Source: a virus
Direction: 5' to 3' (one strand)
IMG/VR virus record: IMGVR_UViG_3300045988_145476
Length of the DNA stretch: 64,000 nucleotides
Shown here piece after piece: positions 9,532 through 40,198 of this stretch; position 1 is the first letter of the stretch; the number at the start of each line of letters is the position of its first letter. The notes under the pieces were generated by a model. It did not search any database. It was not told where the DNA came from and worked only from the letters and a program-made list of their open reading frames with translations. Both the position numbers and the translations under genes were made by a program.

Positions 9532-9542
9532 AAGGAGAAAAT

Positions 9543-9944
9543 ATGAAACAGACAGTAGAAGAAGCAGCAAAAGAATATTACGAAAGATACAAAATTCATT
9601 TGGCAAAAGATATATTCAGACCAAGAATAATAGATGTTTTCAAATCCGGTGCCGAATGGCAGGCAAAGCAATCTCCGTGGATAAGCGTTGAGGAACGGTT
9701 GTCAGAAGAGGGGCAAAAAGTTTTTGTTTTGGTGATGTGTTATGGCACACCATGTATTCGAGAAGAAAAGTTTTGTAGAAATAGCAATTTAGATAAAAAG
9801 GGAATGTGGATTCACGGAAACAGTATCGTGCTGGCATGGTTTCCCACCCCCTCTTTCGATGAGATACTCGAAGCCAACAAGGATGTACTTGAACGGATTA
9901 AAGAGAAAGGAGACCGAATACAGACATGCAGCCCAATGAAATAA
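9543..9944 (+). CDS. DUF551-like phage protein
   Basis: 'WISVEERLSEEGQKVFVLV' resembles the DUF551 core (WISVeDrLPe...Vlv). GGAG lies 5 nt upstream of the ATG. Confidence 0.45.
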   Translation: MKQTVEEAAKEYYERYKIHLAKDIFRPRIIDVFKSGAEWQAKQSPWISVEERLSEEGQKVFVLVMCYGTPCIREEKFCRNSNLDKKGMWIHGNSIVLAWFPTPSFDEILEANKDVLERIKEKGDRIQTCSPMK

Positions 9945-14994: not shown

Positions 14995-15197
14995 ATGCAC
15001 AAGAAACCGCATTGTGGATATTACAAAGTGAAGACCATTTTATTTTGTGGGAGAATCGCCCTTGCCGGCCGCACGTCCTGCAAAAGGAAAGTTCCTACCA
15101 GCCTCTTATTCGTGTGAACGGAACTTATTACCATGTGAAATATGATAACGGAGAACCCGTAGTAGATTATTCCTCTCCCGTAGATTGCGATGAATGA
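14991..15197 (+). CDS. hypothetical protein
   Basis: 68 aa with ATGA overlaps on both sides. Confidence 0.45.
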   Translation: MNAQETALWILQSEDHFILWENRPCRPHVLQKESSYQPLIRVNGTYYHVKYDNGEPVVDYSSPVDCDE

Positions 15198-15651
15198 TAC
15201 ACAGTTTACACAAGCACTTACAAAGGCAATGCCTATGCTGACGGGTTATTCCCGTAACCTTATCGCAGAGGTTTCCGATGCGGATGATTTGCTCCAGCAT
15301 ACGTTACTGAAAGCGTGGGATAATCGTGACAAGTTCTATGATACAGGAAGTTTCACCGCATGGCTCTGTACGATAATGCGGAACACGTTCATCAATTTTA
15401 TCCGAAAGGAGAAGTCCACAGTAGTAAGTGAGGACTGGGTGTTTGACGGTTTCGCAAAGGACGATGTGAACGACTACGATATTAGACAGGCGGTACAGTC
15501 GTTACCTTTTCCCGAAAGAGAATTGTGCGTTTGGTGGATGCACGGTTACTCCTATAAGGAACTTGCGGAAGCGTATGATATTCCTATGGGAACGTTAAAG
15601 AGCCGTGTCTTTCACGTAAAGAAGTTGTTGCGGGAAAAATTAAACCGCTGA
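15190..15651 (+). CDS. ECF-type sigma-70 family RNA polymerase sigma factor
   Basis: Region 2: 'LLQHTLLKAWDNRDKFYDTGSFTAWLCTIMRNTFINFIRKE'. Region 4 HTH: 'LPFPERELCVWWMHGYSYKELAEAYDIPMGTLKSRVFHVKKLL'. Confidence 0.85.
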   Translation: MNDTQFTQALTKAMPMLTGYSRNLIAEVSDADDLLQHTLLKAWDNRDKFYDTGSFTAWLCTIMRNTFINFIRKEKSTVVSEDWVFDGFAKDDVNDYDIRQAVQSLPFPERELCVWWMHGYSYKELAEAYDIPMGTLKSRVFHVKKLLREKLNR

Positions 15652-16285: not shown

Positions 16286-17662
16286 ATGATTGTGTCTGTC
16301 GGAAGAATGATGCGAAAAGGGGGCGGTGGTCTTATATGGCCGAAAGGTTTAAAAGAATCTATCAAGGCTATCTATGACCCTGCGAAGCAAGGTATGACTA
16401 ACTATGATGTGATTGAGGCCTATGCGGAAGATTTTACAAAATGGGCATATAGAAATAGTAGAGGTACTGCTAAAATTACTAATAATGCTATTGTTATAAC
16501 AAACGTAGTTGAAACTAATAATATTGTAGAAGACGCTAAAGAACCCTACTCTGATTTGACCATTCGCGTTACTGGAGTTACAGAAGATAAATATCTTATT
16601 GTTAGACAAGGAAGAGGAAAGCCTGAAGCCCATATTAAAAAAGATGGTATTTACACCTTTAAAGATAATAATCTCTATTTTGGTTTTGGTGTTAGTGTTA
16701 TCGGTGAATGTAATATCACTATTGCCCAGCTTCCTACTTCTATTCTAAAAGATTATAGCGGCAACGGCAACCACGCCTATTTGTATGCTGGTAAAGGTAG
16801 ATTGAATAGTGGTGTTGGCATTTATGCTCAAGACTTTACAAAATGGATTTTTGGTTCTGTTATTCATAATATAAGTACAAAAGCTCATAACAAACTTCAT
16901 ATTGTTAAAAAGAATCCTAATAATTATTTTGGTTTTACCGTTGGTATTCGAAAAGATAATTATTATAATAAGCCTTATAAACTTAAGTTTAATTTTAATA
17001 AAGAAATAAATGATATTAAATTTAGCGTTGTTTCTACTGATGGTAATTTAATTACTACTCAATGTTTTTCGGCTATTATAAATAATGGTTCTGTTGTAGA
17101 TGTTCCTATTATAAGTGAAGAAATATTTAACAATCAAAAAGAACCAAATATTTATTATGATTTTGGTACTAATAAAGATATTGAAATTGACGTAGAATTA
17201 ATTCCTGATTATCCTAATCAGCTCTGCTACGACGGCATGATGTACGCCGTCTGCTACGACTTCCCGATATTAACGGATTACACGGTGATGGCGGATAGGA
17301 CGTGGTTTGAGAGACAAAATAGAGCTTGTTTCTTGTCTAAAATTACTACGAGTGGAACTGGAGCTTTTGGATTTGAATTTTATAATGAATATAATGAAGA
17401 TACAACTTATAGTTTTGGTCGTGTGAACAATGTAGAGCAATTTAAAGACGGTATAACCTATCAAATAACAAATTCATATAATGGAATAGTGAAACTTGAT
17501 TACATTGTTAATGGTAAAGATAATGCAGAGTTGTATATTGGGAAATTACGTCCTTCTGAACGTCCTGCTTTTATCGGCTGTCACGGTGCCATCATAGTCG
17601 CCGACCGCAGCTTCACCGAAGAAGAGATAAACTGGCTAAAGGATAATTTATTTAGAAAATAA
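16286..17662 (+). CDS. LamG/concanavalin-like domain protein (putative receptor-binding or fibre accessory protein)
   Basis: 'LKDYSGNGNHAYLYAGKG' and C-terminal 'GAIIVADRSFTEEEINWLKDNLF' resemble the LamG-jellyroll signatures (D.SGNGN.g.l.G; G.IdevriynRaLs.eEI). It lies directly upstream of a fibre gene. Confidence 0.55.
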   Translation: MIVSVGRMMRKGGGGLIWPKGLKESIKAIYDPAKQGMTNYDVIEAYAEDFTKWAYRNSRGTAKITNNAIVITNVVETNNIVEDAKEPYSDLTIRVTGVTEDKYLIVRQGRGKPEAHIKKDGIYTFKDNNLYFGFGVSVIGECNITIAQLPTSILKDYSGNGNHAYLYAGKGRLNSGVGIYAQDFTKWIFGSVIHNISTKAHNKLHIVKKNPNNYFGFTVGIRKDNYYNKPYKLKFNFNKEINDIKFSVVSTDGNLITTQCFSAIINNGSVVDVPIISEEIFNNQKEPNIYYDFGTNKDIEIDVELIPDYPNQLCYDGMMYAVCYDFPILTDYTVMADRTWFERQNRACFLSKITTSGTGAFGFEFYNEYNEDTTYSFGRVNNVEQFKDGITYQITNSYNGIVKLDYIVNGKDNAELYIGKLRPSERPAFIGCHGAIIVADRSFTEEEINWLKDNLFRK

Positions 17663-17665
17663 TAT

Positions 17666-19003
17666 ATGGCTTCAAATGAAAAAGACTCTCCGATTAGTCT
17701 ACTTGAAACTCTATCGGAAATTGATGGTAACTTGGAGTATTTTGCGGTCGCTAAGGACGGGACTACCTATAAATGTACTCCCGCCCAATTAAAGGATTTT
17801 GTACTGAAAGGCGAAACTCCAGTGGTTCGCATACCTTTAGCGGTATTGAACTTGAGCAATTCTTCAAGCAGCGAGGATATACTCAACGCTTTTGGCGGTA
17901 AGGAAACTTTCATCGCCCTTTGTGAGAAAATCTATGGCAGGGATGTGGTATGCGTCTGTCAGGGTTTTGCCAGTGATGATGATGAAAACATGAAGACTGG
18001 ATATGTAACGCAGGCGATTTCCTGCAAGCATATTGACGCTGAGAACGCAATACTCATGTTCCTTATCAACATAGACAACGTTTCCCACCGGCTTATGATA
18101 AATTGCGTGGACGGTACGGCATCATTCTCCAAGACTACGGTGGATGATGCCAGTGTTATTTTGCTCCCCGATGATGTGAACAGTATTGAACAAAATTACT
18201 CGTCCAAACAGATATTTGACGCTTTTGGCGGTAAGGATGCCTATAACGGTTACGTAAGCAAAATCACCCAGAAGTCGGTTATAAAAATCGGAGATGCTTT
18301 ATATGCCGTTTCACAGGTGTTAGGTTCTTCCTATACCGACGAAAACAATAGCCAGTTAGTCGTGCAGACCATTGCTATGAACGTGATAAAGTACATACAG
18401 GTTACTGTAACCGGCGGTACCGCAAAAGCCATTGTCGGGAAATGGGACGTCGTTGACGCTGAGAAGATACTCACCAAAGACAATACGACCGCTTATACTC
18501 CGACCAATGATTATCATCCCGCTACGAAGAAGTATGTGGATAATATCAATTATGGTAAGGTTATTAACGTTTCTGTGGGCACTTATCTTACTACCAATAA
18601 AAACGAAAAAGACAGGGAAGCAATAGACCTTATAAATACCATTTTTGGTTCGGTTGATAATCTGAAAGAAATAATCCAGGATATTATAGCGAACCACACC
18701 AAGTATTATTTTCACAGTTATAATAGCAAAGATAATTGTATTGAACTTAGTAGCATTTACTCTTTTCACAACCCTGAAACTGAAGAATATAACTTGCAAT
18801 GCAATATCAGTTATTATACTAATAACGGTCCTGTTTCCAAGCGTATGGGATTTAAACTAATGCCCAATGATGAAGACTGCGCTGCCTCTATAGAAGATAT
18901 ACTCACTTCCGATAATCTACAAAGAGTTGTTAAACGTACTAAATCTGAATACGATGGTATTGGTATTAAAGATAATTCTACAATGTATGCAATAACTGAA
19001 TAA
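17666..19003 (+). CDS. tail fibre / receptor-binding protein
   Basis: 'TPTNDYHPATKKYVDN' matches the common fibre motif (..d.aaTKgYVD). There is an internal duplicated segment: 'EDILNAFGGKETF' and 'KQIFDAFGGKDAY'. Confidence 0.6.
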   Translation: MASNEKDSPISLLETLSEIDGNLEYFAVAKDGTTYKCTPAQLKDFVLKGETPVVRIPLAVLNLSNSSSSEDILNAFGGKETFIALCEKIYGRDVVCVCQGFASDDDENMKTGYVTQAISCKHIDAENAILMFLINIDNVSHRLMINCVDGTASFSKTTVDDASVILLPDDVNSIEQNYSSKQIFDAFGGKDAYNGYVSKITQKSVIKIGDALYAVSQVLGSSYTDENNSQLVVQTIAMNVIKYIQVTVTGGTAKAIVGKWDVVDAEKILTKDNTTAYTPTNDYHPATKKYVDNINYGKVINVSVGTYLTTNKNEKDREAIDLINTIFGSVDNLKEIIQDIIANHTKYYFHSYNSKDNCIELSSIYSFHNPETEEYNLQCNISYYTNNGPVSKRMGFKLMPNDEDCAASIEDILTSDNLQRVVKRTKSEYDGIGIKDNSTMYAITE

Positions 19004-19015
19004 AAATTCAAAGGT

Positions 19016-19395
19016 ATGGATAGTAATTTAAAAGTTGGTTCTAATAATGCAGGATTGTTTGTTGGTAATATTGAGATATTAGGGGGATAACAGTTGATTA
19101 TGAAGATGGCTTCTTTAATGATAATGGTTCGGCGTGTATTATAGTTAATAATTCGCAAGAAACTAAATCTTTTAATATAGATAATAATACAGTTAATGTT
19201 GCTTCAAATAGTATTTCCTTTTTATATAGTTATTCCAATTGGAAAATATCTACTAATACAGATATTATATATGATTTTCGTTTTGGCGATGCTGATAATG
19301 GAGAAGCTAATGATACTATTACAGCAAAGGCAAATGATGTATTATTTAATTTTACTGGTTATGGTTCTTATTTAGTTTTAGTAATAAAAGAATAA
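19016..19395 (+). pseudogene. frameshifted small gene, interrupted at a G5 tract; paralogue of 19407-19868
   Basis: From the ATG at 19016 there are 24 codons to a TAA at 19088. The -1 frame is open from 19087 to the TAA at 19393-19395. One extra G in the 19082-19086 run, or a -1 slip, would give one ORF of about 126 aa. Confidence 0.5.
19082..19086 (+). repeat. G5 homopolymer at the frame break
   Basis: Read directly: TTAGGGGGATAA. Confidence 0.95.
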
Positions 19396-19406
19396 ATATA
19401 ATTGAT

Positions 19407-19868
19407 ATGGATAAAGATACGAAAGATATTAACGGGGGGGGGGTAAGAGTAGGTATAAGTAATACGAGTATTCGTATTGGAAATCAACTTATTGCTGGCA
19501 AAGAATTTGATATTAAACAACTTGTTGATAATATTATATTTGCAGATGATTTAGTACATAAAGAAATTAATGGACAACTTGTTCTTATTTGCAATCTTAG
19601 TAGTATCCCTATTTATTTATATCGAGATTCAGTAAGAATTGAAATAAAAAAACAACATATCGAATGGTATTCATTTAGAGCACCTACTGCTATTAGTCTT
19701 TTTAATGAAGATAATACTCCAATAAGAGCTATTACACAAAAGGAGTCTATATCCAATAATTTTGTTATAGAAATAACTGATTCTGTCGTTAATAATGGCG
19801 ATAGTGTATTTGATATTGCAGATAGTACAGGGATTTTCGGTTTGGTTTGTGTTCTAATGAATGCGTAA
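19407..19868 (+). CDS. hypothetical protein with a G10 tract in codons 10-13
   Basis: 153-aa ATG ORF. The tract encodes 'NGGGV'. It lies in a very AT-rich context downstream of the fibre genes. Confidence 0.55.
   Translation: MDKDTKDINGGGVRVGISNTSIRIGNQLIAGKEFDIKQLVDNIIFADDLVHKEINGQLVLICNLSSIPIYLYRDSVRIEIKKQHIEWYSFRAPTAISLFNEDNTPIRAITQKESISNNFVIEITDSVVNNGDSVFDIADSTGIFGLVCVLMNA
19434..19443 (+). repeat. G10 homopolymer inside a coding region
   Basis: Read directly: AACGGGGGGGGGGTAAG. Confidence 0.95.
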
Positions 19869-19912
19869 AACAATAATATTAATAAAATAACAAAGTGTTT
19901 ACTTTTTTGATT

Positions 19913-20356
19913 ATGAGAGTAAAAGTATTTTATGAGAATTGGCTCGCTAAAGCCATTCTGTTCAAGAACTACGGTACGATGATGTTCTTTGGTTTCATCA
20001 TTACCAAACATGCAAGTTTGCCTATTGAGGCACAACGTGAGGAGCGTATTCATCAGCTCCAGTTCAAGGAATGTATGGAAATTGCTACGATACCGGCGGT
20101 TTTCCTTTCTCTGTATGTGAGCTGGTGGTGGATGCTTCTTATTCCCACCTTGTACTATATAATGTACGGTGTGGAATGGTTTATCAGTTTTATATATCAT
20201 TTGTTCAAGGACAAACAAATCGGTGATGGGAAAGTGAACGCCAATGCCTATTATGCAAGCGCCTTTGAAATGGAAGCTAAGGAGAACCGGAACAGCCAGA
20301 TTTATCTGCGTTTCCGCAAATGGGGGGCTTGGTTCAAATATTACGGGAAGTTATAG
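19913..20356 (+). CDS. membrane protein
   Basis: I prefer the ATG at 19913 over the GTG at 19895. Hydrophobic segments GTMMFFGFIIT and IPAVFLSLYVSWWWMLLIPTLYYIMYGVEWFISFIY. Confidence 0.5.
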   Translation: MRVKVFYENWLAKAILFKNYGTMMFFGFIITKHASLPIEAQREERIHQLQFKECMEIATIPAVFLSLYVSWWWMLLIPTLYYIMYGVEWFISFIYHLFKDKQIGDGKVNANAYYASAFEMEAKENRNSQIYLRFRKWGAWFKYYGKL

Positions 20357-20413: not shown

Positions 20414-21088
20414 ATGCTGGACAAATCAAAAACGGACCCGAAGTTAGGTAGGGAAATCCACCAACTTCTACATGACACAGGAATCGAAACCCCTATGATA
20501 GACTCAACGTTTCAGACCGAATCTGAAAAGTTTACCGCCATACGGGACAGCTTTAAGACTATCATGCAAACTCTTGGAATGGACTTGACCGATGATAGCC
20601 TTTCGGAAACCCCAAATCGTATTGCCAAGATGTACCTCAACGAAATATTTTGGGGTCTTGATTACAACAACTTCCCGAAAGTAACCACCATAGACAATAA
20701 GATGCAGTATAATTCCATGCTGCTGGAAAGAAACATAAAAGTTTCTTCATTCTGTGAGCACCACTTTGTGAACTTTGTAGGCAGTGCGTATGTTGCTTAC
20801 ATCCCGCACGGGAAAATAATCGGTTTGTCAAAGATAAACCGCATTGTTGAGTTCTTCTGCCGCAGGCCACAAGTGCAGGAACGCCTGTGTGAACAAATAT
20901 GGGCGGCTCTCTGCCATGTACTTGAAACCGAAGACATTGCCGTTCTTATTCGTGCAGAACATTTCTGCGTTAAGTCAAGAGGAGTTGAGGATATTAATTC
21001 CGATACGGTTACTTCCCGTTTGGGCGGTTTGTTCTATGACAGTGAGCAAAGGGACGAGTTTTATAAGGTACTCAACTTTGGTGTATGA
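20414..21088 (+). CDS. folE: GTP cyclohydrolase I
   Basis: 'SFCEHHFVNFVGSAYVAYIPHGKIIGLSKINRIVEFFCRRPQVQERL' contains the FolE hallmark motifs CEHH, GLSK and RPQVQERLT. Confidence 0.9.
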   Translation: MLDKSKTDPKLGREIHQLLHDTGIETPMIDSTFQTESEKFTAIRDSFKTIMQTLGMDLTDDSLSETPNRIAKMYLNEIFWGLDYNNFPKVTTIDNKMQYNSMLLERNIKVSSFCEHHFVNFVGSAYVAYIPHGKIIGLSKINRIVEFFCRRPQVQERLCEQIWAALCHVLETEDIAVLIRAEHFCVKSRGVEDINSDTVTSRLGGLFYDSEQRDEFYKVLNFGV

Positions 21089-26222: not shown

Positions 26223-26392
26223 TGAAAAAACAGTTTTTGTGTGTTAGTTTAATTCATTCAGTTAAGAATAGCGGTTCCCGTAGGTTATTTAGTAATGTTT
26301 CGTTTCGTATTAGTAGTAAATTGAAATGCACAGGATTTGCGTCCTTATAGACCAAGCGAGGTCGAACTATTGGAATTAGTTATTCGGTAAAG

Positions 26393-26422
26393 AGAGTGGC
26401 TTGTGAAAGTCGCTCTTTTTTC
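26393..26422 (+). terminator. rho-independent terminator
   Basis: AGAGTGGC (26393-26400) pairs with GTCGCTCT (26409-26416), giving 8 bp including two G-U pairs. A T6 run follows at 26417-26422. Confidence 0.55.
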
Positions 26423-26872
26423 TGCCTTGTCAGAACGAAAAACGGGTAAATTTATCTCTGAAACTAAGACAACCTCATTTTTCTATTTTAAAAAGACCAA
26501 TTTTTACCCTCTTCCAACAGATACTATCCACATGCAGGAAAAATTTCCTTTTTTGCAGGGAAAATCTTCCCTTTTCCATAGAAATAACATAACTGCCTAA
26601 CTAAGCTAACCAATAGAAAGTGTAGGGTAAACCGTACTTCTTTAAGTAATTACGTATGAACGCTCCCAAAAGAAAACAGATTCGCGGCTGAATGTTTTCT
26701 GTACTCTATAATACTTAATACTATATAATACTACATAAAAGATATATGTGGTGGGTTTCTCTCAAATTACGTAAACTCATGTGGTGGGTAATGGGTAGAT
26801 AGGTAGAAAAGAAAGGTTATTGTAGATACCGATAGAAAATGGCCCTACGCATACGTGTAGACGTGGTTGTGG

Positions 26873-27072
26873 GCTTATTCTAATTAGCTATTTACGGCAA
26901 TAAGCATTATTTTCCATGCGTAATTAGCGTTATTTACTGCGTGTAATTAGCTATTTTCTCTCTGTACGAGCGTTTATTTTAATTAGAAACGCAGTTATTT
27001 TAATTAGAAATACGCTTATTCTAACTGGAAATAGGTTTATTTTTCTGTGCAAATAAGCTATTTTAGGCGAAA
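26873..27072 (+). repeat. iteron-like array built on TTATT(N)TAATTAG(A/C)(A/T)A
   Basis: Core motifs at 26980 (TAATTAG), 27001 (TAATTAG) and 27022 (TAACTGG) are phased exactly 21 bp apart, each ending in GAAA. Degenerate units lie on both sides, including TAATTAG at 26881, 26921 and 26944. Confidence 0.75.
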
Positions 27073-27207
27073 TTTCCATAGATGTTTACAAAAACGCCTA
27101 TTTTTTAATTTAAGCCGATATTGATTATCAGATAGTTAGCAAAAAATCTCCTATGAAAGTATAAAAAACGCAGATTTAGAAATATTTTTACTTTCTAATT
27201 AGATTTT

Positions 27208-27223
27208 GGTTATTGCAATAACC
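27208..27223. repeat. perfect 16-bp palindrome GGTTATTGCAATAACC
   Basis: Read directly. Related GGTTATTG half-sites lie at 26815-26822, 28084-28098 (GGTTATTGTAATAAC) and 28147-28154 (reverse complement). Confidence 0.9.
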
Positions 27224-27428
27224 ACAACTACGTATGTAGATAACCAGTTACGCAGTAGAATTGGTGGTTTATTATGTGTAATTAGTATATAGCTGTATGT
27301 AACTATATGTAATTACCGCAGATTTATTATATAACTACCGGATTAATTGTTCCTGCGTGTTATTTTTCCGTATTAATTAAGTAGGAAATATATTATATAG
27401 AGTAATTGGGAGTTATTTTATTTATCGT

Positions 27429-27681
27429 ACGGCGAAAAATTTAATTTTTGGCGGGATAATTTCTAATTAGCGTATTATAATAAGTAATTAATCACCGTAA
27501 TAAGGAAAGATTTTATTCTCCGTGCGGATTATTCGTATTATCTACGGGAATATTATATGAATTTCTAACTGGAAACCTTTTTACGGCGGAAAATTAAGTA
27601 GTAATTATATTAGTTAGCGTATAAAGCGAAAAACAATTCGGCGAATTTTTAATTTACGGCGGGATAATAGTACGTAGCGTA
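27429..27681 (+). repeat. three copies of a composite ~40-45-bp repeat (CGGCG-A/T run-GGCGGGATAAT-TAGCGTA)
   Basis: R1 27429-27474, R2 27583-27621 (degenerate) and R3 27639-27681. GGCGGGATAAT occurs at 27450 and 27658. TAGCGTA occurs at 27468, 27615 and 27675. Confidence 0.7.
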
Positions 27682-28171
27682 GACAGGATTTCAGTTCACG
27701 GAGCTGAATTTACTGGCAGGGGGGTACCCTTAAATGGAATGCGGCGCACGGTCGGCTTGGGGTAGTACGGTTAGGTAAGAAAGGAGTGGTGGAAAGTCGG
27801 ACAATAATTAGTGTATATATGATAACTTCGGAAGTTTGTGTATGTGTGGTAACTTTGGTGGATACGGGTGGTGTGCGTGTGAAAATCGGTGGTAACGGGT
27901 GAAAAACGGGTGATTTGGAAATGTACTTGAAAATACAGGGTGCGGTTGACGTTTGGTGTGGAAATAAATTGCCGGAAGTTTGGAGTTCTCACTAAATATT
28001 AGTATATTAATATATAATTACTTGTATATAGTACTATGAAAGATATAGTGTCCGGATGTTTGGGATGCTTATCGGTCGGTTATGGTTATTGTAATAACTG
28101 GTAGTCGGTACGGTGGTATTTCCGTTAAATAATGTTATTATATAAACAATAACCAAATATTTTACCGGATA

Positions 28172-28207
28172 TGTTTGGTTATCTTATATAAAGTAACTAT
28201 ATTTGTA
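28172..28207 (+). promoter_or_regulatory. consensus promoter inside 36-bp repeat copy 1
   Basis: TGTTTGGTTATCTTATATAAAGTAACTATATTTGTA. TTTG at 28174-28177, N20, TATATTTG at 28198-28205. It is identical to 30727-30762. Confidence 0.7.
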
Positions 28208-28270
28208 ATGTGAAAAACGAAACGCACCTATCGGTATATTGCTGACGGGTAACCAGAAAATCCTACGACA

Positions 28271-28462
28271 ATGAAAACGAAAGAAATCAAGAAGCAACTC
28301 GAAATGATGTACAATTTCTATGAAGCGGATGCGCAGCTCTGTGCGATGGCTGACATGAACTACAATTGGGGAATGCATATCGAACAGGGGTACCAAATAA
28401 TCTCTGAGCGATTAGGAGTCAGTGTTGACGAAGTAAGAAGCGTTGACGAATGTTGTGAATAA
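28271..28462 (+). CDS. hypothetical protein
   Basis: 63-aa ATG ORF, first gene after the promoter. Confidence 0.5.
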   Translation: MKTKEIKKQLEMMYNFYEADAQLCAMADMNYNWGMHIEQGYQIISERLGVSVDEVRSVDECCE

Positions 28463-28476
28463 AAAGCATAAGGACT

Positions 28477-29019
28477 ATGGAACGAAACGAATTAATCATG
28501 GAGATACACAAATGTTCTCCGATGTATCCAGTTAAGAAGTTGCAGCAGATGAATGACGACACGCTGGCTAATCTCTACAAGTGGACGTGCAAACCTGCGA
28601 AAGTGGTAAAGGACGACCGTCTTTATTCCCAATCGGGAGACGTGGTGAAAGTAAAGGAAACGTATGAGGAGAAATGCGGTGAGTTGCTTGACCCGTACGA
28701 CCCGGATTATCTGAGCACGTCCCCTACGAAGGACGACCCTATCTCCCCTTATGAGAAACGGTTCCTGCATAAGGTGTCTATCTTGCAGAACAAGTTGCGC
28801 AGGGAAGGCGTTTCCGCTGACTGGGACGAGTACCGCCAGTGTTTCCGTGTCGCAAGGTACATAAGTTCGTACCCGACTTATCGGTATGTGCGGGTGAACT
28901 TGGACGAGAACGACTATTCGTTCGGTGACGAAAAGGACGATTTCTTTTGGGACGGTAAAGTATCTGCCGTGGTTGCGGAAGTGAAAAAATGGGTGAACGC
29001 CAAACTTATCAAAAAATAA
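28477..29019 (+). CDS. hypothetical protein
   Basis: 180-aa ATG ORF in a GC-richer region. The long antisense shadow ORF is judged spurious. Confidence 0.6.
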   Translation: MERNELIMEIHKCSPMYPVKKLQQMNDDTLANLYKWTCKPAKVVKDDRLYSQSGDVVKVKETYEEKCGELLDPYDPDYLSTSPTKDDPISPYEKRFLHKVSILQNKLRREGVSADWDEYRQCFRVARYISSYPTYRYVRVNLDENDYSFGDEKDDFFWDGKVSAVVAEVKKWVNAKLIKK

Positions 29020-29025
29020 AACGCT

Positions 29026-29223
29026 ATGAAAAGGATATGTGATTTTATACACGGACGGTTCGGACGCAAAGTTTTGAAACCGGGTTACAGGGAAATATGG
29101 GTTCGCACGATGTATTGCCTGCTGCTCGTAATCGGAGTACTGGCTATGGCGGTGGTCGTGCAAGTGTGGAGCTGGCTGGTCGGTTTCCTTAATGCGATGG
29201 CTTGGGGGACTACGGTATGGTGA
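29026..29223 (+). CDS. small membrane protein
   Basis: 65 aa. Hydrophobic segments 'MYCLLLVIGVLAMAVVVQVWSWLVGFL'. Confidence 0.45.
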   Translation: MKRICDFIHGRFGRKVLKPGYREIWVRTMYCLLLVIGVLAMAVVVQVWSWLVGFLNAMAWGTTVW

Positions 29224-29981
29224 CTATCGGTATATTCGGCAGGGAGTACAGGTTTTGTCGCAGTGTGAAGGCCTCTTACAGTGACCGGCATAATCGTGCG
29301 GTGAAACTTGCGGAAAGGTTCGAGAGCCTGTCCGAGAAGTTTGACGGTATGTTCAGTAGGGGCGGTTGCGGTGAGACGCTCAATTCCCGTCTGGCGCTTG
29401 CCTGCAAGATGATGATGTACACCGGCATCCGTATCGGTAACGAGGGAAGTGCCGAGGGGTATATGACTAAACCGCACCCCAATTCCAAGGAACAGCCCCA
29501 GTTCGTGCAGACGTACGGCCTTACCACGCTTCTTCCCCAGCACATGAGTATCAGACGTGGGAAAGTGTACCTTAACTTTCTTGGTAAGAGACGTGTGGAC
29601 AACAGCTTTGTACTTGACGGTAAACTCGCAGGACAGGTTAGGGACATGTCCGGGTATATCTCCGAGGGGGAAACCCTTTTCGAGATTACTTCCTACGAAC
29701 TTACCAAGTTCATAAAGAAGTATGTGGGCAGACAGTTTACCCCGAAGGACTTCCGTACCATGAGGGCTAATATGTACGCATGGGAAAAGTTCGAGGAGAT
29801 ATGCGAAAGGGAGCTGCCCAGTACCAAGACCGAGTATAACGGAGAGGTTAAGGAAATCGCCACTTATGTCAGCGAGAAACTCAACAATACTCCGGGTGTA
29901 TGTAAGAAAAGCTATATTGATGAACTGCTTTGGGACGAGTTCAGTGACGCCCGTCCCGTAACTAAAAGGAATAAAAAATGA
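29217..29981 (+). CDS. type IB DNA topoisomerase (compact, bacterial/poxvirus-like catalytic domain)
   Basis: All five catalytic-pentad contexts are recognisable: 'TGIRIGNE' (Arg), 'YGLTTL...LNFLGKRRV' (Lys), 'FTPKDFRTMRAN' (Arg), 'LNNTPGV' (Asn/His position) and 'CKKSYI' (Tyr). I prefer the ATG at 29217 over the TTG at 29202. Confidence 0.8.
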   Translation: MVTIGIFGREYRFCRSVKASYSDRHNRAVKLAERFESLSEKFDGMFSRGGCGETLNSRLALACKMMMYTGIRIGNEGSAEGYMTKPHPNSKEQPQFVQTYGLTTLLPQHMSIRRGKVYLNFLGKRRVDNSFVLDGKLAGQVRDMSGYISEGETLFEITSYELTKFIKKYVGRQFTPKDFRTMRANMYAWEKFEEICERELPSTKTEYNGEVKEIATYVSEKLNNTPGVCKKSYIDELLWDEFSDARPVTKRNKK

Positions 29982-30298
29982 ATAAACAAGAAGCTATCCA
30001 ATGGATGTTGCGTGGCGCAAGGCTCACGCACAAGTATTTCTCCTCTGACGAATGGGTTACTATCGGTGAGGACGGTCTTATCGAACTCGAAGACGGGGTG
30101 AGGTGTACCCCCGCTGAATTTTGGTCGTGCCGCAGTGGAGAATGTTTTGAGACGGGGTGGGATTTTGTAAGCTCCCCCGATGTATATACGTGTATTGCCG
30201 CAAGGGAGTTCAACTGTGCGGTTGAGGATGTTTCCCCTCTTGAGCGGGCATGTATGAAAAGCAAATATTTCGTTTTTATGTATAATTCTAAAAGATAA
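29978..30298 (+). CDS. hypothetical protein
   Basis: 106 aa with an ATGA overlap to the topoisomerase stop. 'EAIQWMLRGARLTHKYF...EW' is only loosely DUF2829-like. Confidence 0.5.
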   Translation: MNKQEAIQWMLRGARLTHKYFSSDEWVTIGEDGLIELEDGVRCTPAEFWSCRSGECFETGWDFVSSPDVYTCIAAREFNCAVEDVSPLERACMKSKYFVFMYNSKR

Positions 30299-30303
30299 AT
30301 GTT

Positions 30304-30657
30304 ATGGGTATTCATTTAAGTAAAAAACACGGGGTAAACCCAAGTATAGAAATTTGTGCCGTTTGCGGTAAGGGAATTGGAGTTGCATTACTCGGTAGGT
30401 TAAAGAATGATGCAGAGGCTCCCGGAGAAGTGTGCCTTGGAAATCTTTGTGACACTTGTCAGGGTGTAGTTGATGCCGGCGGTACCCTTATCATAGAGAC
30501 TGTTGACGGTGAACCATGCAGTAAGAACCCTACCCGTACGGGGCGTATCGTTGGTATCACGCACGAAGCCGCTGAAAGGCTCTTCCATAGTCACGCACCC
30601 GTTGCCTATATGGTACATACCGACTTTACAAATATATTCGGAGAATCATTCAATTAG
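30304..30657 (+). CDS. hypothetical protein with two CxxC pairs
   Basis: 117 aa, with 'CAVCGKG' and 'CDTCQG'. Confidence 0.5.
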   Translation: MGIHLSKKHGVNPSIEICAVCGKGIGVALLGRLKNDAEAPGEVCLGNLCDTCQGVVDAGGTLIIETVDGEPCSKNPTRTGRIVGITHEAAERLFHSHAPVAYMVHTDFTNIFGESFN

Positions 30658-30726
30658 TCGGTATCACTCTGATATAACAGTACTTATTCGGTTATTCCTT
30701 ATGCGTTAACTATTATTAATACTCTT

Positions 30727-30762
30727 TGTTTGGTTATCTTATATAAAGTAACTATATTTGTA
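30727..30762 (+). promoter_or_regulatory. consensus promoter inside 36-bp repeat copy 2
   Basis: Identical 36-mer to 28172-28207, lying 29 nt upstream of the ATG at 30792. Confidence 0.7.
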
Positions 30763-30791: not shown

Positions 30792-31460
30792 ATGAAGACT
30801 AACAGACAACAAGCGAAAGATATCATGGCACGTATCCATGAATTATTGCAGCCCCTCGCATCGGAGTTTAACATGAACGCATACGTGGACAGTGCAACGT
30901 TTTCCAGCGAGGGAACCTCTTTGAACTCACTTACTTGTAAGTTGCGGATAGTTCCTTTGGAAGGCGGAACGAAAGTAAGTTTTGAAAAAGCTCCCTCTGG
31001 CAAGTACCCCGTTGGCACTGTATGGTATTCGTCCAGTAAGGACATGTATTACAAAGTTCTCGAATGTGTTCTGAAACGGAAGTATTCCTATTCTGTTATG
31101 GCTTACGATGGTAAGAACGTTGTCAGCAGAACGACAGGAACCTTTCTTGATTCTTGCACGCAGGTAACTATTCCGACATTTGCGGATTTCCGACTTTACC
31201 TTACGATGGCTTATGACGACGACAGGCTTACTTCCCAACAGCTTACTATTTGGGATTCCGTTGATAATACGTACGCTTTTATCTTTCGTGAAAACGAGGA
31301 ACTGGCTCAGAAAGTGCTTGATTTGGTTGACAAACTTTCCGAAGCCACCCGAAAGGCTAACGTCAAGAGTATCTACGATACGCTGTTCATTAAGAAATCA
31401 ACCACCGCTCTAAATGATACTTATTTATTACTCAAAAAATTGTATAAAGATGGAAAGTAA
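30792..31460 (+). CDS. hypothetical protein
   Basis: 222-aa ATG ORF. Confidence 0.55.
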   Translation: MKTNRQQAKDIMARIHELLQPLASEFNMNAYVDSATFSSEGTSLNSLTCKLRIVPLEGGTKVSFEKAPSGKYPVGTVWYSSSKDMYYKVLECVLKRKYSYSVMAYDGKNVVSRTTGTFLDSCTQVTIPTFADFRLYLTMAYDDDRLTSQQLTIWDSVDNTYAFIFRENEELAQKVLDLVDKLSEATRKANVKSIYDTLFIKKSTTALNDTYLLLKKLYKDGK

Positions 31461-31782
31461 AAGAAACACTTCTGAGGTTAAAACCTTAATTCGTATCGGT
31501 TTTGAGAAACCGTCCTATTTTAAACGAAGCGTCTGGGTAAAAGTTGAACGGATAATGACGTTCCTGCAACACAGAGGCGAGGTTTATGAAAACAACGGCG
31601 AATGTAAATTCATCCCCCGTAACGGTAACTATACCGAACATGATTTGGAACGTTGGGCTAACATGTGGTTGGACTCTCCTTTTGAAGACCACCTTGACGA
31701 ACTCCGCAGATTGTCAGCGGAAACGGGACTCCCGTTAAATGACAAGCGTTTATTGAACAAATATTATAACTGTAAAAACTAA
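31450..31782 (+). CDS. hypothetical protein
   Basis: I chose the ATG at 31450 (MESKRNTSEV...). Confidence 0.5.
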   Translation: MESKRNTSEVKTLIRIGFEKPSYFKRSVWVKVERIMTFLQHRGEVYENNGECKFIPRNGNYTEHDLERWANMWLDSPFEDHLDELRRLSAETGLPLNDKRLLNKYYNCKN

Positions 31783-31787
31783 AGATT

Positions 31788-33251
31788 ATGGAAGCAAAAA
31801 AATTCGTATCAACAATCAAAGGTTATAGAACTCGTTTTACAAATAAGCCTAATGCCGAACTTGAGAAGAAACAAATCGAAGGAACTATTGAGAACTTCGG
31901 TGGTAAGATAACCGCATTTACCGAATTGAAAAAAGCCGATGCCGAATTGCTGGCATACGTTAAGGGAGTTCTTGGTATGGTTAAGGTTGCACCCGTTGAA
32001 AATGCTGAGAAACCAGTTGAAAAAGCTGCACCTAAAAAGTCCTCTAAGAAGCAGGCTCCTGTTGAAGCCGACAGTGAGGAAGAAACGCTCGCTTCCTCTA
32101 CAAGCGGAAGTCTGTACGAAATAGATACCGTTAAGAAAACATGCAAACGTATCTTTAAGGATTTGAAACAGATTGACATTGACGCTATCGAAGTTACGGA
32201 AATGCCAATGACTACCTATCACAGATATTTGCTTGATACATTCCCCGGCGAAGGAGCCAAACTGAACAAAAAAGGACAACTTACTTTTCGTGGCTACCGC
32301 ATACAGTGTACTATTGAGAACGGTTTCACTATTGAGGACATTAAAACACGTGCATTGGTGGCTACACCTTTCGAGGGCATCCCTACTCCGAGAGAATTGG
32401 GAGACTTTTTCAAACGACCCGTTGTTGAACATACACCCGAAGAACTTCAAGAGGCTGTAAAACGTGGTAAGGAACTGATGGAGAAATCCGAAAAAGAACA
32501 TAAGGAAGAAGCTCCTATTGATTTTGAACTTCTGAGAAAGAAAGTTATCGGTAAAATCATAGCTATTCGTAACAAGAAGGTTTCCGATTTCGACCCAGAA
32601 ACTTTCCCCGAAATGATACCGTTCAGACGTTGGAAAATCAATGCCCGTATGCTTCTTAATAAGTGGAAAGAACGTAAGATGCGTTATCCTAAATTCTTGG
32701 ATGAACTTGAAAAACTTACTCGTGAAGAAACCTTTGAAACGAAAAAACAAAAGGCTCCCAAGTTTGTTGGAACTTTACTTCCCGAATACACATCGGTAGG
32801 TGAACTCAAAGGCGATACGATAATCGTTGACGGTAAGAGCGTTCCCGCTTCTCCGTTTATACGGGATGTTCTTCTCCACTTTGAACCGGCAGTGATGCCG
32901 CAACTTATGCGATATGCTACGGGAGCTATTGACAGGATACAACTTCTTACCTCTCCGATTGAGAAGCATCCCGAAATAGAATATAATTCAAAGGTCTGTG
33001 AACATGTATCAGCGGAATTATTAACTTTGCTGTGTACGAGCGTCGGTATTGTTCCCCCGCAAGATTTACTCTATGACAGCGGTCTGGAAGTTGACGACAG
33101 AGTTCTGTTCCATGACGGTGATGAATGGGTGGTTAAGAAAGTTACCGAAATCTCGGATGCGGTTTATCTCGGCAAGGACTTTGCTTTACTCAAAACGGAT
33201 AAGTGGTTAAAACTTGAAGAAGGTGAAAAATCGAAGAAACAAAAGAAGTAA
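31788..33251 (+). CDS. hypothetical protein (487 aa, Lys/Glu-rich)
   Basis: Long ATG ORF with a charged linker 'AEKPVEKAAPKKSSKKQAPVEADSEEE'. The antisense 313-aa ORF is judged a shadow. Confidence 0.6.
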   Translation: MEAKKFVSTIKGYRTRFTNKPNAELEKKQIEGTIENFGGKITAFTELKKADAELLAYVKGVLGMVKVAPVENAEKPVEKAAPKKSSKKQAPVEADSEEETLASSTSGSLYEIDTVKKTCKRIFKDLKQIDIDAIEVTEMPMTTYHRYLLDTFPGEGAKLNKKGQLTFRGYRIQCTIENGFTIEDIKTRALVATPFEGIPTPRELGDFFKRPVVEHTPEELQEAVKRGKELMEKSEKEHKEEAPIDFELLRKKVIGKIIAIRNKKVSDFDPETFPEMIPFRRWKINARMLLNKWKERKMRYPKFLDELEKLTREETFETKKQKAPKFVGTLLPEYTSVGELKGDTIIVDGKSVPASPFIRDVLLHFEPAVMPQLMRYATGAIDRIQLLTSPIEKHPEIEYNSKVCEHVSAELLTLLCTSVGIVPPQDLLYDSGLEVDDRVLFHDGDEWVVKKVTEISDAVYLGKDFALLKTDKWLKLEEGEKSKKQKK

Positions 33252-36945: not shown

Positions 36946-37482
36946 ATGGCTACAATTACAAGAGCGTTTGAGTTCGACGCAGCACATCGTGTAATGAATG
37001 AGAAAGTAAAATGCTTCAATTTGCACGGGCACCGTTTTAAAGTGGAAATGACTTTTGAGTATAACTCCAAGAGTCTTCTTGGATACGCTATTGACTTTAA
37101 GGAGATAAAGCGTATTGCCTGCGGATATATTGATGAACATTTAGACCACGCTTGCCTACTTAACCCCGAAGATACCGAGCTTATTGAGCTGTGCAGAAAA
37201 CAAAACTGGCGTCTGTGGGTTATGGGAATGGGTGTGTATGGTGACATCAACCCGTCTGCGGAGAATATTGCTTCCGAGCTTTTCTATATTATCAGACAGT
37301 TATTCATTAATGAGCCTTGCGGTTTGCGTCTTACAAACTTACGGCTGTATGAGACACCGAATTGCTGGGTTGATTGTTCCCGCATTGATTATGTGGCTAC
37401 AAATATGTTCCTTGAGAATCTTGGTACATGGAGAAAACAAAAGGGTTCAATGAAGTACGACATAAGAGAAGACCATGAGTAA
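36946..37482 (+). CDS. queD: 6-carboxy-5,6,7,8-tetrahydropterin synthase (QueD/PTPS family)
   Basis: 'FEFDAAHRV...KCFNLHGHRFKVEMTFE' contains the QueD Cys-x3-His-Gly-His zinc/catalytic motif. 'DFKEIK' is typical. It overlaps the terL start by 8 nt. Confidence 0.85.
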   Translation: MATITRAFEFDAAHRVMNEKVKCFNLHGHRFKVEMTFEYNSKSLLGYAIDFKEIKRIACGYIDEHLDHACLLNPEDTELIELCRKQNWRLWVMGMGVYGDINPSAENIASELFYIIRQLFINEPCGLRLTNLRLYETPNCWVDCSRIDYVATNMFLENLGTWRKQKGSMKYDIREDHE

Positions 37483-40198
37483 AAAGAAAAAAATAACGCC
37501 TAAAGAAGAAGGATACGTATTTCCTACCGAGGGTGGTAGAATCGAAGACATCCACACCGAAGAACTTGCGGGTAAATCGGTATCGTTTGACGCACACGAA
37601 ATCACTTCCAAGATTATAGAGTTCGGTAAAATACTTACCGGACTTTCTTTGTATAAATACCAAGAAGAAGCGGTGTATGCGATTATTTATTCTATCATAA
37701 CTTTTTCCGGCGATGTGAAAACAATGCTTTTCAGTCGTCAATCAGGTAAATCGGAAGCTATGGCTTTTGTTATTGATACGCTTACCGTATTACTTCCGGC
37801 CCTTGCCAAAGTGATACCCGATTTGGAGCAATTCTCCAGCGGTTTCCGTATCGGATTGTTTGCTCCGCAATCAGACCAAGTTGTTACTACCTATTCTCGT
37901 GCAATGACCCGTATAAATTCGGCTAATGCGGAGATGGTTCTTAGTGACCCAGATATTGACGTGTACTTAGAAAGTTCCGCCCGTCTTGAACTTTCAAACG
38001 GTTCTTATCTTGCCGGACAGGTTGCGAGTAAACAGTCCAAGATTGAATCAAAGACGTATGATTTGGTAATAGTCGAAGAGGCACAGGACGTTGACGACCT
38101 TATTGTTCAGAAATGTTATGCTGAGGATACTTTAATAAATTTGCCCTATGGAGATTATGCCACTATTAAAGATGTGGTTGAGAGAAAACTTCCCGTGTTA
38201 ACTCCAGAGGGAAAAATGAAACCGTCTGCATGGCATAATACGGGTGTTCAGGGTGTTTATAAAATCACATTATGCAACGGCAGGGAGCTTGAAGTAACTT
38301 CTCAACATAGACACTTGGTTAGACGTAGGAATGTTAAGGAGTCTTTTGAACTTCATACAGATAAACTAAAAGTTGGTGATAGACTTGCTGTTCCCGATTT
38401 TATTCCGACATTCGGACATTATGGTGACTATTCTATGGGAGTAGTTATCGGTTTTTTGCTTGGTGACAGATGCTTTAGCGGAAGTCAAGTGCAGTTCTGC
38501 GGTTTTGAAGAAGTTTGGAATTTCGTTTCCCCTCATGTGGAAAAACTCGGCTGTGTTGCTTTTACCAATTGCTTTAATAAAAACGGTTTATATGAGGGTA
38601 CTTTCCGAAACGTTGATGGAAAAAATACTCCTAATAAAATAATTGGTCTTTTGAAAGATTTAGGTCTTTGGGGATTAAAAGGAGAGAATAAGTTTATACC
38701 TAATTTACCCTACTCTAAAGAGTTTCTTGTAGGCCTTATTTGCGGACTATTTGAAAGTGATGGAAGTGTACAGGCTCTTAAAAAGGGTAACATACGATAT
38801 GCGTCAATTTCTAAGAAGTTGGTTTATGGTTTAAGCCTTCAATTGCAAAAGTTTGGAATACACTGCTCTATATCTGTAAAGAGTAACATTGGTAAAGGAG
38901 TGTATGAAAATACCAAGCCCTTATATGAATTGCATATTAGGGATAACATTTCGGTTATACGTTTTTGTGAGAATTTTCGCCTTGTAACAAAAAATGAGAA
39001 GCTCGATAAGGCTAAGTTAATTGCTGAAAGAATTAATAAGAAAGCCGGAGCTACTAAGGTATATGATGGTAACAGATATGTAAGAATCAAGTCTATTGAA
39101 TACACAGGTGAAAAACAGACCTATTGTGTAACGGTTCCTACCGAGGGGCATTGGATAATCGCTAACGGAATTGTAAGTGGTAACTCAATAGAACCTATGT
39201 TATCTGCCACTGGTGGAACACTTATAAAGGTAGGAACTACTGGTATGGTTAAAAACCATTTTTGGTATGAGATACAACATAACAAGAATATTGACCGGAA
39301 AATAGTAGACCCCCGTATAAAGAATCATTTCGAGTATGACTACAAGCGTATTATCCATGACCGTAGACTTCAATACGATATAGACCATAAACGTTTCCAC
39401 CTTAACTATGAAGCGGATATTCAACGTAAAAAGGAACGTTGGGGTGAAGACTCACAAGCTTTCAAACTCGCTTATGCGCTTATTTGGGACTTAGAAAGCG
39501 GTATGCTTCTTTCCGATAAGGAGTACAACGGTATCATAAACAGGAAACTCGGTTTGCAAGATGCCCGTAATGAGGATTACGTGGTTGCCGGCCTTGATAT
39601 TGGTAAGCATCCTGCCGAAACGGTTCTTACTATTGTCAAGGTATTCCACGGTGAAGATGTATTCGACCGACCGTATAAACAGATACTTGCGTGGGCTTGT
39701 CTTGGTGGTCTTGATTATGAGAGCCAGCATCATGTGATAATGGATTTTATTGTAGAGTTTAATATTTCTGTTATCTTTGCGGATTATACGGGTGTCGGTA
39801 AGCCAGTTGTTGACCGTCTTATGTATGCCTGCGGAGAGTATGTGACAATAGAACCTTATACGTTCACCGCACAAAGCAAATCGGATATGTGGTTTAACTT
39901 CCTTTCCGATATACAGACCCACCACCTTATTGTACCGGCCAATAAGAAGACCCGTATGACACCGGAGTACATGAAGTTTGAGGAGCAAATGAAAAATTGC
40001 CAGAAGTACTATAATGGGACATATTTGGTATGTGAAAAGAGTGAGGGTTACTTTGATGATATGGTAGACAGTTGTGCCCTTGCTTGCATGGCCGCTACTT
40101 ATGAACAGGAAGTAAAGGAAGAAATGGAAGTTACTCCGAATCCTTTGTATGAAGGAGTAACAAGTACCATACAAGCGATAAGAAGACATTCATTTTAA
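37475..40198 (+). CDS. terL: terminase large subunit, interrupted by an intein
   Basis: Walker A 'LFSRQSGKSE' and Walker B 'YDLVIVEEAQ'. The C-terminal half has the size and layout of a nuclease domain. It is followed directly by the portal gene. The 907-aa length is explained by a 357-aa insertion. Confidence 0.9.
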   Translation: MSKKKKITPKEEGYVFPTEGGRIEDIHTEELAGKSVSFDAHEITSKIIEFGKILTGLSLYKYQEEAVYAIIYSIITFSGDVKTMLFSRQSGKSEAMAFVIDTLTVLLPALAKVIPDLEQFSSGFRIGLFAPQSDQVVTTYSRAMTRINSANAEMVLSDPDIDVYLESSARLELSNGSYLAGQVASKQSKIESKTYDLVIVEEAQDVDDLIVQKCYAEDTLINLPYGDYATIKDVVERKLPVLTPEGKMKPSAWHNTGVQGVYKITLCNGRELEVTSQHRHLVRRRNVKESFELHTDKLKVGDRLAVPDFIPTFGHYGDYSMGVVIGFLLGDRCFSGSQVQFCGFEEVWNFVSPHVEKLGCVAFTNCFNKNGLYEGTFRNVDGKNTPNKIIGLLKDLGLWGLKGENKFIPNLPYSKEFLVGLICGLFESDGSVQALKKGNIRYASISKKLVYGLSLQLQKFGIHCSISVKSNIGKGVYENTKPLYELHIRDNISVIRFCENFRLVTKNEKLDKAKLIAERINKKAGATKVYDGNRYVRIKSIEYTGEKQTYCVTVPTEGHWIIANGIVSGNSIEPMLSATGGTLIKVGTTGMVKNHFWYEIQHNKNIDRKIVDPRIKNHFEYDYKRIIHDRRLQYDIDHKRFHLNYEADIQRKKERWGEDSQAFKLAYALIWDLESGMLLSDKEYNGIINRKLGLQDARNEDYVVAGLDIGKHPAETVLTIVKVFHGEDVFDRPYKQILAWACLGGLDYESQHHVIMDFIVEFNISVIFADYTGVGKPVVDRLMYACGEYVTIEPYTFTAQSKSDMWFNFLSDIQTHHLIVPANKKTRMTPEYMKFEEQMKNCQKYYNGTYLVCEKSEGYFDDMVDSCALACMAATYEQEVKEEMEVTPNPLYEGVTSTIQAIRRHSF
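38114..39184 (+). mobile_element. intein with LAGLIDADG homing-endonuclease domain
   Basis: Starts with Cys ('QK|CYAEDTLINLP'). Block B is 'VTSQHRH'. Two LAGLIDADG motifs: 'VVIGFLLGDRCF' and 'LVGLICGLFESDGSV'. Ends 'HWIIANGIVSGN|SIEP' with a +1 Ser. 1071 nt, in frame. Confidence 0.85.

Follow-up and report, generated by a model that had tools for sequence, protein, structure and literature searches.

Results and Discussion

In the 64,000-nucleotide stretch of viral DNA analysed here (IMG/VR record IMGVR_UViG_3300045988_145476; hereafter the window), an operon encoding a type IB DNA topoisomerase (TopoIB) is bracketed by two identical 36-bp direct repeats, designated P1 and P2, each of which holds a consensus Bacteroides-type promoter with a dyad in its spacer. 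Our analysis indicated that P1 and P2 are probably two copies of one regulated promoter in a lytic-type Bacteroides phage of ~89 kb closely related to BS162P1, and that they form an old pair, conserved across the phage family and presumably kept alike by gene conversion. The window shares ~99.5% identity with Bacteroides phage BS162P1, a sewage isolate infecting B. salyersiae (OP172706, 88.9 kb); position 1 of the phage record corresponds to window position 27390, and in the region of interest it is base-for-base identical to the human-gut metagenome contig L019. The phage is common in human gut metagenomes; the exact TopoIB protein was indexed in 287 sample blocks and the exact product of g222, the first gene after P2, in 435. 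The close genomes used for comparison were 21 near-identical sequences comprising 20 metagenomic contigs and the BS162P1 isolate record (L001). An initial annotation of this DNA had described the segment between the repeats as a cassette richer in guanine and cytosine (GC), excisable by recombination between them, and had proposed either recent acquisition of a moron-like module or duplication of a promoter.

Identical promoters with a dyad in the spacer

The 36-mer TGTTTGGTTATCTTATATAAAGTAACTATATTTGTA occurred exactly twice on the + strand of the window, at 28172-28207 and 30727-30762 as first reported, and no third copy was found in the window at up to 3 mismatches. It was matched in none of 100 shuffled sequences and was the sole 100%-identical direct repeat of such length in the window, its length being exactly 36 bp because the flanking bases on either side differ. 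Both copies read TTTG-N20-TATATTTG, so that the perfect TTTG-N20 promoter claimed for each copy in the initial annotation was confirmed. The consensus for sigma-ABfr, the primary sigma factor of Bacteroidota, is TTTG near -33 and TAnnTTTG at -7 (Bayley et al. 2000, via PMC7366714), and P1 and P2 match it perfectly, with a 20-nt spacer and a location just upstream of a gene, the first start codon lying 66 nt downstream of P1 and 32 nt downstream of P2. Sites of the form TTTG-N17-23-TAnnTTTG numbered 11 in the window against 2.8 expected by chance. The exact 36-mer gave no match in IMG/VR. P1 was present in all 21 close genomes, spacer variants among them; in L007 (5381-5416) and L021 (6956-6991) its -33 box is TTTA and not TTTG.

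P1 and P2 also hold a conserved 20-bp dyad, GTTAT-N10-(A/G)TAAC, which exactly occupies the spacer between the -33 and -7 boxes and was present in only these two of the 11 promoter-like sites of the window. The loose motif GTTA-N12-TAAC occurred at five sites in 64 kb, starting at 28079, 28134, 28178, 30691 and 30733 and all located at or in P1 or P2 (three at P1 and two at P2, counting the one inside each promoter), and the remaining 26.5 kb of the BS162P1 genome held one further site, within a coding region. The same dyad was found between the -33 and -7 boxes of 27 promoters from 15 lineages, with the T at its fifth base and a preceding AA-A conserved though neither was imposed by the search, and a P1 equivalent of the same architecture was recovered in 15 lineages. 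In relatives, both promoters are preceded by one to three further dyads at a distance of ~40-80 bp, and upstream sites analogous to the 28134 palindrome were located in L022, L023, L024, L029 and L031. Dyads that overlap a promoter and are accompanied by neighbouring dyads form the classic operator layout of a dimeric regulator, and on this ground we read P1 and P2 as co-regulated promoters and the dyad as a putative operator through which one dimeric regulator would control both operons.

In the proposed model, the host primary sigma factor would read each copy through the -33 TTTG and the -7 TAnnTTTG, while a putative dimeric protein, encoded by either phage or host, would bind the spacer dyad plus one or two dyads 40-55 bp upstream and thereby switch both promoters together. 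The most likely action of such a protein would be occlusion of RNA polymerase, resulting in shut-off or autoregulation. P1 would drive g63, g180, g65, TopoIB, g106 and g117, and P2 would restart transcription into g222, g110, g487 and the genes leading into the packaging module. Gene conversion between P1 and P2 would keep the two copies alike, and the TopoIB operon would have gained its small accessory open reading frames (ORFs) next to the promoters.

Conservation and concerted evolution of the promoter pair

The 3.5 kb upstream of TopoIB was compared with the 6 kb downstream of it in 37 relatives, of which 35 loci had enough flank. A promoter-bearing repeat of 31-112 nt with 87-100% identity, by far the best match, bracketed the TopoIB block in 23 of the 35, one copy closing the noncoding region and the second preceding the g110-g487 block. 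This outcome supported the duplicated promoter of the initial annotation, here as a conserved trait of the family. Exactly two operator-promoters per locus were present in 22 of the 22 genomes examined for their number; oral-clade relatives have P1 only, and in these TopoIB runs straight into g110-g487. In both the g487 and the g180 trees, the two-promoter lineages grouped together and a single-promoter genome, L033, was nested among them, which suggests one duplication followed by later losses.

The N10 spacer and the flanks of the promoters are lineage-specific, yet common to both copies of any one genome. In 160 of 191 divergent genome pairs, compared over a 123-nt segment, the two copies within a genome were more alike than were equivalent copies from different genomes. 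In the densely sampled L036 clade, several genomes had private substitutions in both of their copies: L040 had eight, L050 seven, L042 three and L055 one (permutation p=0.0004). Within the species, eight genomes carried a two-base spacer haplotype (ATAATAAC for AAAGTAAC) at P1 and L008 carried it at P2, and the profile of single-nucleotide polymorphism density within the species revealed no haplotype block at P1 or P2. Repeats that differ between lineages and are near-identical within a genome indicate concerted evolution, and as the identity includes free positions and extends over 90-110 nt, selection on the boxes cannot explain it. Gene conversion, or repeated re-copying between P1 and P2, would be the simplest account of these sequence comparisons, and the co-variation of the copies provides a clean small example of concerted evolution in viral regulatory DNA.

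The TopoIB block as an old operon

Six + strand ORFs lie between the repeat copies, and the same six are annotated in GenBank OP172706; together with a Pfam match this agrees with the six genes, including a type IB topoisomerase, that had been predicted there. The block, its gene order and both repeat copies were kept in 21 of the 21 near-identical genomes, and an empty-site allele with one promoter copy, which the initial annotation had envisaged, was found in none of them. TopoIB had 365 homologs, with 59-74% identity among the 120 matches listed, many of them on contigs of 77-90 kb, and g180 and TopoIB were syntenic in 77-91 kb relatives down to ~50% protein identity. TopoIB had the same location in all five contexts inspected; in four relatives, including an oral-metagenome contig, it directly follows a gene-free region of 1.2-3 kb and is itself followed by homologs of g110 and g487 and then by QueD, terminase and portal genes. 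A second set of relatives was retrieved via g487 instead of TopoIB to avoid circularity, and TopoIB was present in 21 of these 25 contigs, one contig being truncated upstream. Across the family, g180 and TopoIB are general while g63, g106, g117 and g222 are patchy or species-restricted. These comparisons show a block that is, as far as sequence can tell, an old conserved TopoIB operon and not a recently acquired cassette.

Among the variable genes, g63 was lost by two independent deletions, one common to L002 and L006 (5562-5710 in L002) and another in L020 (7125-7270), where the start of g63 is joined to g180 via the similar start sequences ATGAAAACGAAAGAAAT and ATGGAACGAAACGAAT. Deletion of the block between P1 and P2 was predicted to leave the junction ...ACCGGATA + 36-mer + CATGAATT... 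(also written ...TTTTACCGGATA + 36-mer + CATGAATTAAAAC...), and the reciprocal circle or duplication the junction ...TTAATACTCTT + 36-mer + ATGTGAAAAACG.... The deletion junction had no match in the JGI metagenomes, a weak test because the positive control found only one contig of the phage in that collection (L060, with the native P2 context).

The segment is richer in GC than the rest of the window, as had been noted: the block has 47.0% GC against 40.1% elsewhere, and positions 28501-29500 reach 50.5%, the highest 1-kb value in 64 kb. The figure of ~42% given earlier for a sample line near 10.4 kb was too high, the actual value being ~36%. At third codon positions the GC content (GC3) of the genes at 28477-29981 is 0.58-0.62 in comparison to a mean of 0.39 (standard deviation 0.067, maximum 0.53) for other genes. 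The atypical composition that had been ascribed to the whole block applies to 28477-30298 only, as the excess ends before the gene at 30304-30657, whose GC3 is an ordinary 0.38. The long antisense ORFs of the block, which had also been pointed out, do exist (28492-29163, 29085-29543, 29276-29647 and 29962-30315) and are expected from a GC3-rich sense frame. Third positions gained G as well as C in a general way, including in the codons AGG, GTG, ACG and GAG, which are not known as preferred codons in Bacteroides; translational selection was considered as a cause and, with the rise being so general, was judged unlikely.

An excess of GC3 in g180-TopoIB was also seen in most relatives (0.53 vs 0.38 in L023, 0.45 vs 0.32 in L027 and 0.52 vs 0.40 in L036), and an excess common to the orthologs is not a trace of a transfer that this genome received recently. 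High GC3 goes with the conserved genes and ordinary GC3 with the variable ones, which identifies the GC-rich part as the old part of the block. This corrects a possible misreading of the locus: its old core is the block that is GC-rich and flanked by repeats, and its mobile part consists of the ordinary small ORFs next to the promoters. The GC3 of TopoIB was elevated in 10 of 10 examined genomes with both promoter copies (z=1.1-3.4) and not elevated in 6 of 6 genomes with one copy (z=-0.4 to 0.9). As the two-promoter state probably arose once according to the g487 and g180 trees, this association is phylogenetically confounded and the link may be a clade trait. A broader interpretation would make P1 and P2 a family-wide switch run by a regulator of GTTAT-N10-ATAAC, with the repeats also serving as recombination junctions, and with conversion or exchange both homogenising the promoters and maintaining the GC3 island through GC bias; the confinement of raised TopoIB GC3 to genomes with two promoter copies is in its favour, but taken as a whole, we regard this combination as rather improbable.

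Alternative explanations

Several observations weigh against the interpretation of P1 and P2 as an old, co-regulated pair around a conserved operon. Part of the identity between the copies could result from selection on promoter and operator positions and not from conversion. The 3' half-site reads GTTAC or ATTAC in L082 and in the oral-clade relatives L025 and L032, which makes the dyad imperfect in these genomes. The operator-plus-promoter pattern matched at least 120 Bacteroidota genome contigs, about the rate expected from promoter abundance, and at that level its presence in bacterial genomes says nothing on whether a regulator is host- or phage-encoded; the dyad may serve a host factor or none. 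A Pfam scan of 97 window proteins detected no DNA-binding or helix-turn-helix family besides a sigma factor of the extracytoplasmic function (ECF) type, and the best PDB match of the g110 profile, to MarR-family proteins, was non-significant (E=0.08). With regard to the operon, L075 has only a TopoIB remnant (8934-9710) with two internal deletions relative to L080, although its two promoters are still in place and match each other at 97% over 91 nt, and the L082/L084 lineage is without TopoIB and without P2, having g180-g110-g487 (L082 6400-10000) and TTTGTTATCTAACATAAAATTACTATCTTTG as its P1-like promoter. TopoIB is therefore near-core but can be lost. As a separate observation, the bacterial loci with the operator-promoter pattern (L086-L205) include recurring N10 spacers, TTGACAAACA seven times and TCCACTCAGA four times, which hints at conserved host promoter families carrying the same dyad.

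The morons of lambdoid phages (Juhala, Hendrix) are promoter-led units of atypical base composition, and the 2.5-kb block resembles them in both respects. The interpretation of the block as a recently acquired, GC-richer module of this kind, excisable by recombination between the 36-bp repeats, draws on its being the GC and GC3 maximum of the window, on the exact direct repeats that bracket it and on the absence or decay of TopoIB in a few relatives. We nevertheless consider it highly improbable, as none of the 21 near-identical genomes lacks the block or either repeat, synteny of g180 and TopoIB extends to distant relatives, the GC3 excess is common to orthologs in most relatives, it is the conserved and not the variable genes that are GC-rich, and the decay of TopoIB in L075 proceeded by internal deletions with both promoters still in place; failure to find the deletion junction points the same way, although that test was of low power. 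The block also differs from lambdoid morons in lacking a terminator: no terminator-like hairpin was found between g117 and P2 or near either promoter copy, and shuffled sequence folds at least as well as 30630-30730 (z=+1.0). Only g63 behaves as an indel gene. A milder form of the cassette idea does hold, however, as the TopoIB and g487 trees disagree. L036 and L040 share TopoIB at 100% identity and g487 at 93%, so that the block is virtually identical in backbones ~10% apart, whereas L040 and L050 share TopoIB at 87% and g487 at 100%, being ~13% apart through the block with a divergence that ends within a few bases of the P2 3' edge. A second breakpoint, mapped on the 5' side for L036/L040, falls within g180 and not at P1. 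The tree conflict and the breakpoints indicate that the block was exchanged between related phages and that a promoter copy can be a junction; the cassette idea thus fails for a recent insertion and holds, in its milder form, for a TopoIB block swapped between backbones within a sister clade, with one breakpoint at the P2 edge. This exchange also favours an account in which the repeated promoters act mainly as portable homology for modular shuffling and regulation is secondary, as with the promoter-early-stem-loop (PeSL) cassettes that provide a precedent in T4-type phages (Arbiol et al. 2010, PMC2839356; Comeau et al. 2014, PMC4122927). In line with such cassettes, repeated strong host-type promoters stand beside small nonessential ORFs, the variable g63, g106, g117 and g222 adjoining the promoter copies, P1 and P2 enclose 5 to 14 genes depending on the relative, and a module boundary coincides with a promoter copy in L040/L050. 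In contrast to PeSL cassettes, P1 and P2 have no attached terminator stem-loop and no dispersed family, being the only two copies in the whole genome and bracketing a conserved operon; the g63 deletions used other microhomologies than the promoter repeats, the 5' breakpoint of L036/L040 is not at P1, and neither a mini-circle nor a repeat-mediated deletion junction was observed in our low-power search. We consider shuffling as the main role to be unlikely, albeit with some points in its favour.

Alternatively, the dyad may be an extended recognition element of the transcription machinery, for example of host RNA polymerase carrying a sigma factor modified or encoded by the phage, where the copies would be alike through selection at every position. 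The phage does encode an ECF-like sigma factor (15190-15651), the half-sites abut the -33 and -7 boxes, and the pattern also occurs in Bacteroidota genomes. Against this, the upstream auxiliary dyads are without a following -7 box, the N10 varies between lineages and between auxiliary sites yet is identical between the two promoters within one genome, homogenisation extends over tracts of up to 89-112 nt, far past any polymerase contact, and an ECF -10 element would lie outside the conserved 36 bp. On balance, a machinery element appears improbable, and a pair of operator-bearing promoters remains our preferred interpretation.

In the lambda-type OL/PL and OR/PR arrangement, several dyad operators overlap two promoters under one repressor. 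P1 and P2 are similar in that two promoters each have an overlapping dyad and adjacent auxiliary dyads with one recognition sequence, and a conserved operator-bearing pair of host-type promoters belongs to a known kind of regulatory design. They differ in pointing in the same direction, where the lambda promoters diverge around the immunity region, and in having promoter cores that are identical at every base and co-evolve; moreover, no lysogeny genes are present in the window of this phage and no repressor was identified among the window proteins.

The regulatory DNA of Bacteroides phages is almost undescribed, and our literature search found no mention of BS162P1 or of a phage TopoIB in Bacteroides. 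P1 and P2 provide a concrete promoter-plus-operator unit of ~60-120 bp that points to a putative regulator and could serve as a switchable part for Bacteroides genetics, and both the cultured isolate BS162P1 and its host B. salyersiae BSC162 are available.

Genes of the two operons

The features of the locus are collected in Table 1.

Table 1. Promoter elements, palindromes and genes of the P1-P2 locus (window coordinates).
Feature	Position	Strand	Remarks
Noncoding region	26223..28171		~2 kb before P1, after Dps-like gene; AT-rich, TAATTAG iterons
Auxiliary palindrome GTTATGGTTATTGTAATAAC	28079..28098		Upstream of P1
Auxiliary palindrome GTTATTATATAAACAATAAC	28134..28153		Starts 44 bp upstream of P1 operator
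P1, 36-bp repeat copy	28172..28207	+	First promoter after the 2-kb noncoding region; heads TopoIB operon
P1 -33 TTTG	28174-28177	+	Sequence match
P1 putative operator palindrome GTTATCTTATATAAAGTAAC	28178-28197		Between -33 and -7
P1 -7 box TATATTTG	28198-28205	+	Fits TAnnTTTG
g63	28271..28462	+	Small accessory ORF just after P1; presence/absence within species
g180	28477..29019	+	Conserved TopoIB partner; GC3 0.62
g65	29026..29223	+	Small hydrophobic protein, partly conserved; GC3 0.58
TopoIB	29217..29981	+	Type IB DNA topoisomerase (bacterial/poxvirus type), 254 aa; GC3 0.62
g106	29978..30298	+	Patchy accessory ORF; phrog_3474 (unknown function) E=1.2e-11; among distant relatives only in L030
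g117	30304..30657	+	Cys-rich accessory ORF; GC3 0.38, ordinary; homologs only in L027, L029, L030
Auxiliary palindrome GTTATTCCTTATGCGTTAAC	30691..30710		Starts 42 bp upstream of P2 operator
P2, identical to P1	30727..30762	+	32 nt before g222 start codon; heads g222-g110-g487 operon
P2 -33 TTTG	30729-30732	+	20-nt spacer
P2 putative operator palindrome	30733-30752		Between -33 and -7
P2 -7 box TATATTTG	30753-30760	+	Fits TAnnTTTG
g222	30792..31460	+	First gene after P2, species-restricted; 4 database clusters only, all at least 97% identity
g110	31450..31782	+	Small conserved protein of P2 operon; present in relatives
g487	31788..33251	+	Conserved core gene of P2 operon; 42-55% identity in all family relatives

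Against Pfam PF01028, TopoIB scored 54.6 bits (cutoff 23.7; E=1.3e-14), and it also matched D. radiodurans TopIB (2f4q, E=2.7e-8) and poxvirus (variola) TopIB (2h7f, E=6.7e-4). Its residues K124, R180, N224 and Y233 align with K174, R239, N280 and Y289 of the 2f4q chain, which we take to be the catalytic residues, and R72 is invariant in the family alignment. Judged from these alignments the enzyme is apparently intact, with the catalytic Arg-Lys-Arg-Asn/His-Tyr pentad present. It shares with the D. radiodurans and variola enzymes a catalytic domain in which Lys, Arg, Asn and Tyr are aligned, and differs from them in being short and phage-encoded and in its location as the second conserved gene of a promoter-proximal operon. 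Homologs of its partner g180 were found in 14 of 18 relatives tested, with 22-59% identity and mostly directly upstream of TopoIB. The AlphaFold2 (AF2) model of g180 had a predicted local distance difference test (pLDDT) score of 79, but Foldseek against PDB gave a best E=0.31, and sequence and profile searches of PDB were empty.

The only PHROG matches of the block genes were to families of unknown function. For g63, no homolog was found in distant relatives and no match in Pfam or PHROG. In L004 (7514-7827) no intact g117 ORF was called, and a 32-aa ORF plus an antisense ORF were present instead. In the P2 operon, g222 gave at most weak tblastn matches (23-24%) in two relatives and, when used as a probe for relatives, recovered nothing outside the species. 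The g110 protein, for which the AF2 single-sequence model was unusable (pLDDT 50), is a candidate winged-helix regulator, although this is a weak lead, and the g487 profile had no match in PDB. Scans of the window for tRNA genes and Rfam families gave no match.

Noncoding region and other features of the window

All nine TAATTAG heptamers of the window lie within 26881-27805 of the noncoding region, three of them as the palindrome CTAATTAG, and a C-poor, G/T-rich tract follows at 27690-28130 (11% C). Relatives have an equivalent gene-free gap of 1.2-3 kb before the TopoIB block, with iterons shown in L024 and L025. This region may represent a replication origin or the genome ends.

The ECF-type sigma factor has Sigma70_r2 (E=9.7e-16) and region 4 (E=9.4e-5) domains, and a phage factor of this type implies a second, phage-directed class of promoters. 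Two AT-rich stretches, 16286-17662 and 18500-20200, have a GC content of 0.28-0.33 and GC3 down to 0.25, and the second encloses the only sizeable minus-strand ORF of the window (19613-20200). A 907-aa protein encoded between QueD and portal (37475-40198), presumably the large terminase, contains an intein with a LAGLIDADG endonuclease, and intein-less versions of ~550 aa were found in L023, L024 and L025. The window also encodes a radical-SAM protein (2524-3243), GTP cyclohydrolase I (20414-21088) and a PTPS/QueD-like protein (36946-37482), a set typical of 7-deazaguanine DNA modification, and the protein at 13536-14252 has crAss001_48 and Tad2-like (anti-Thoeris) domains.

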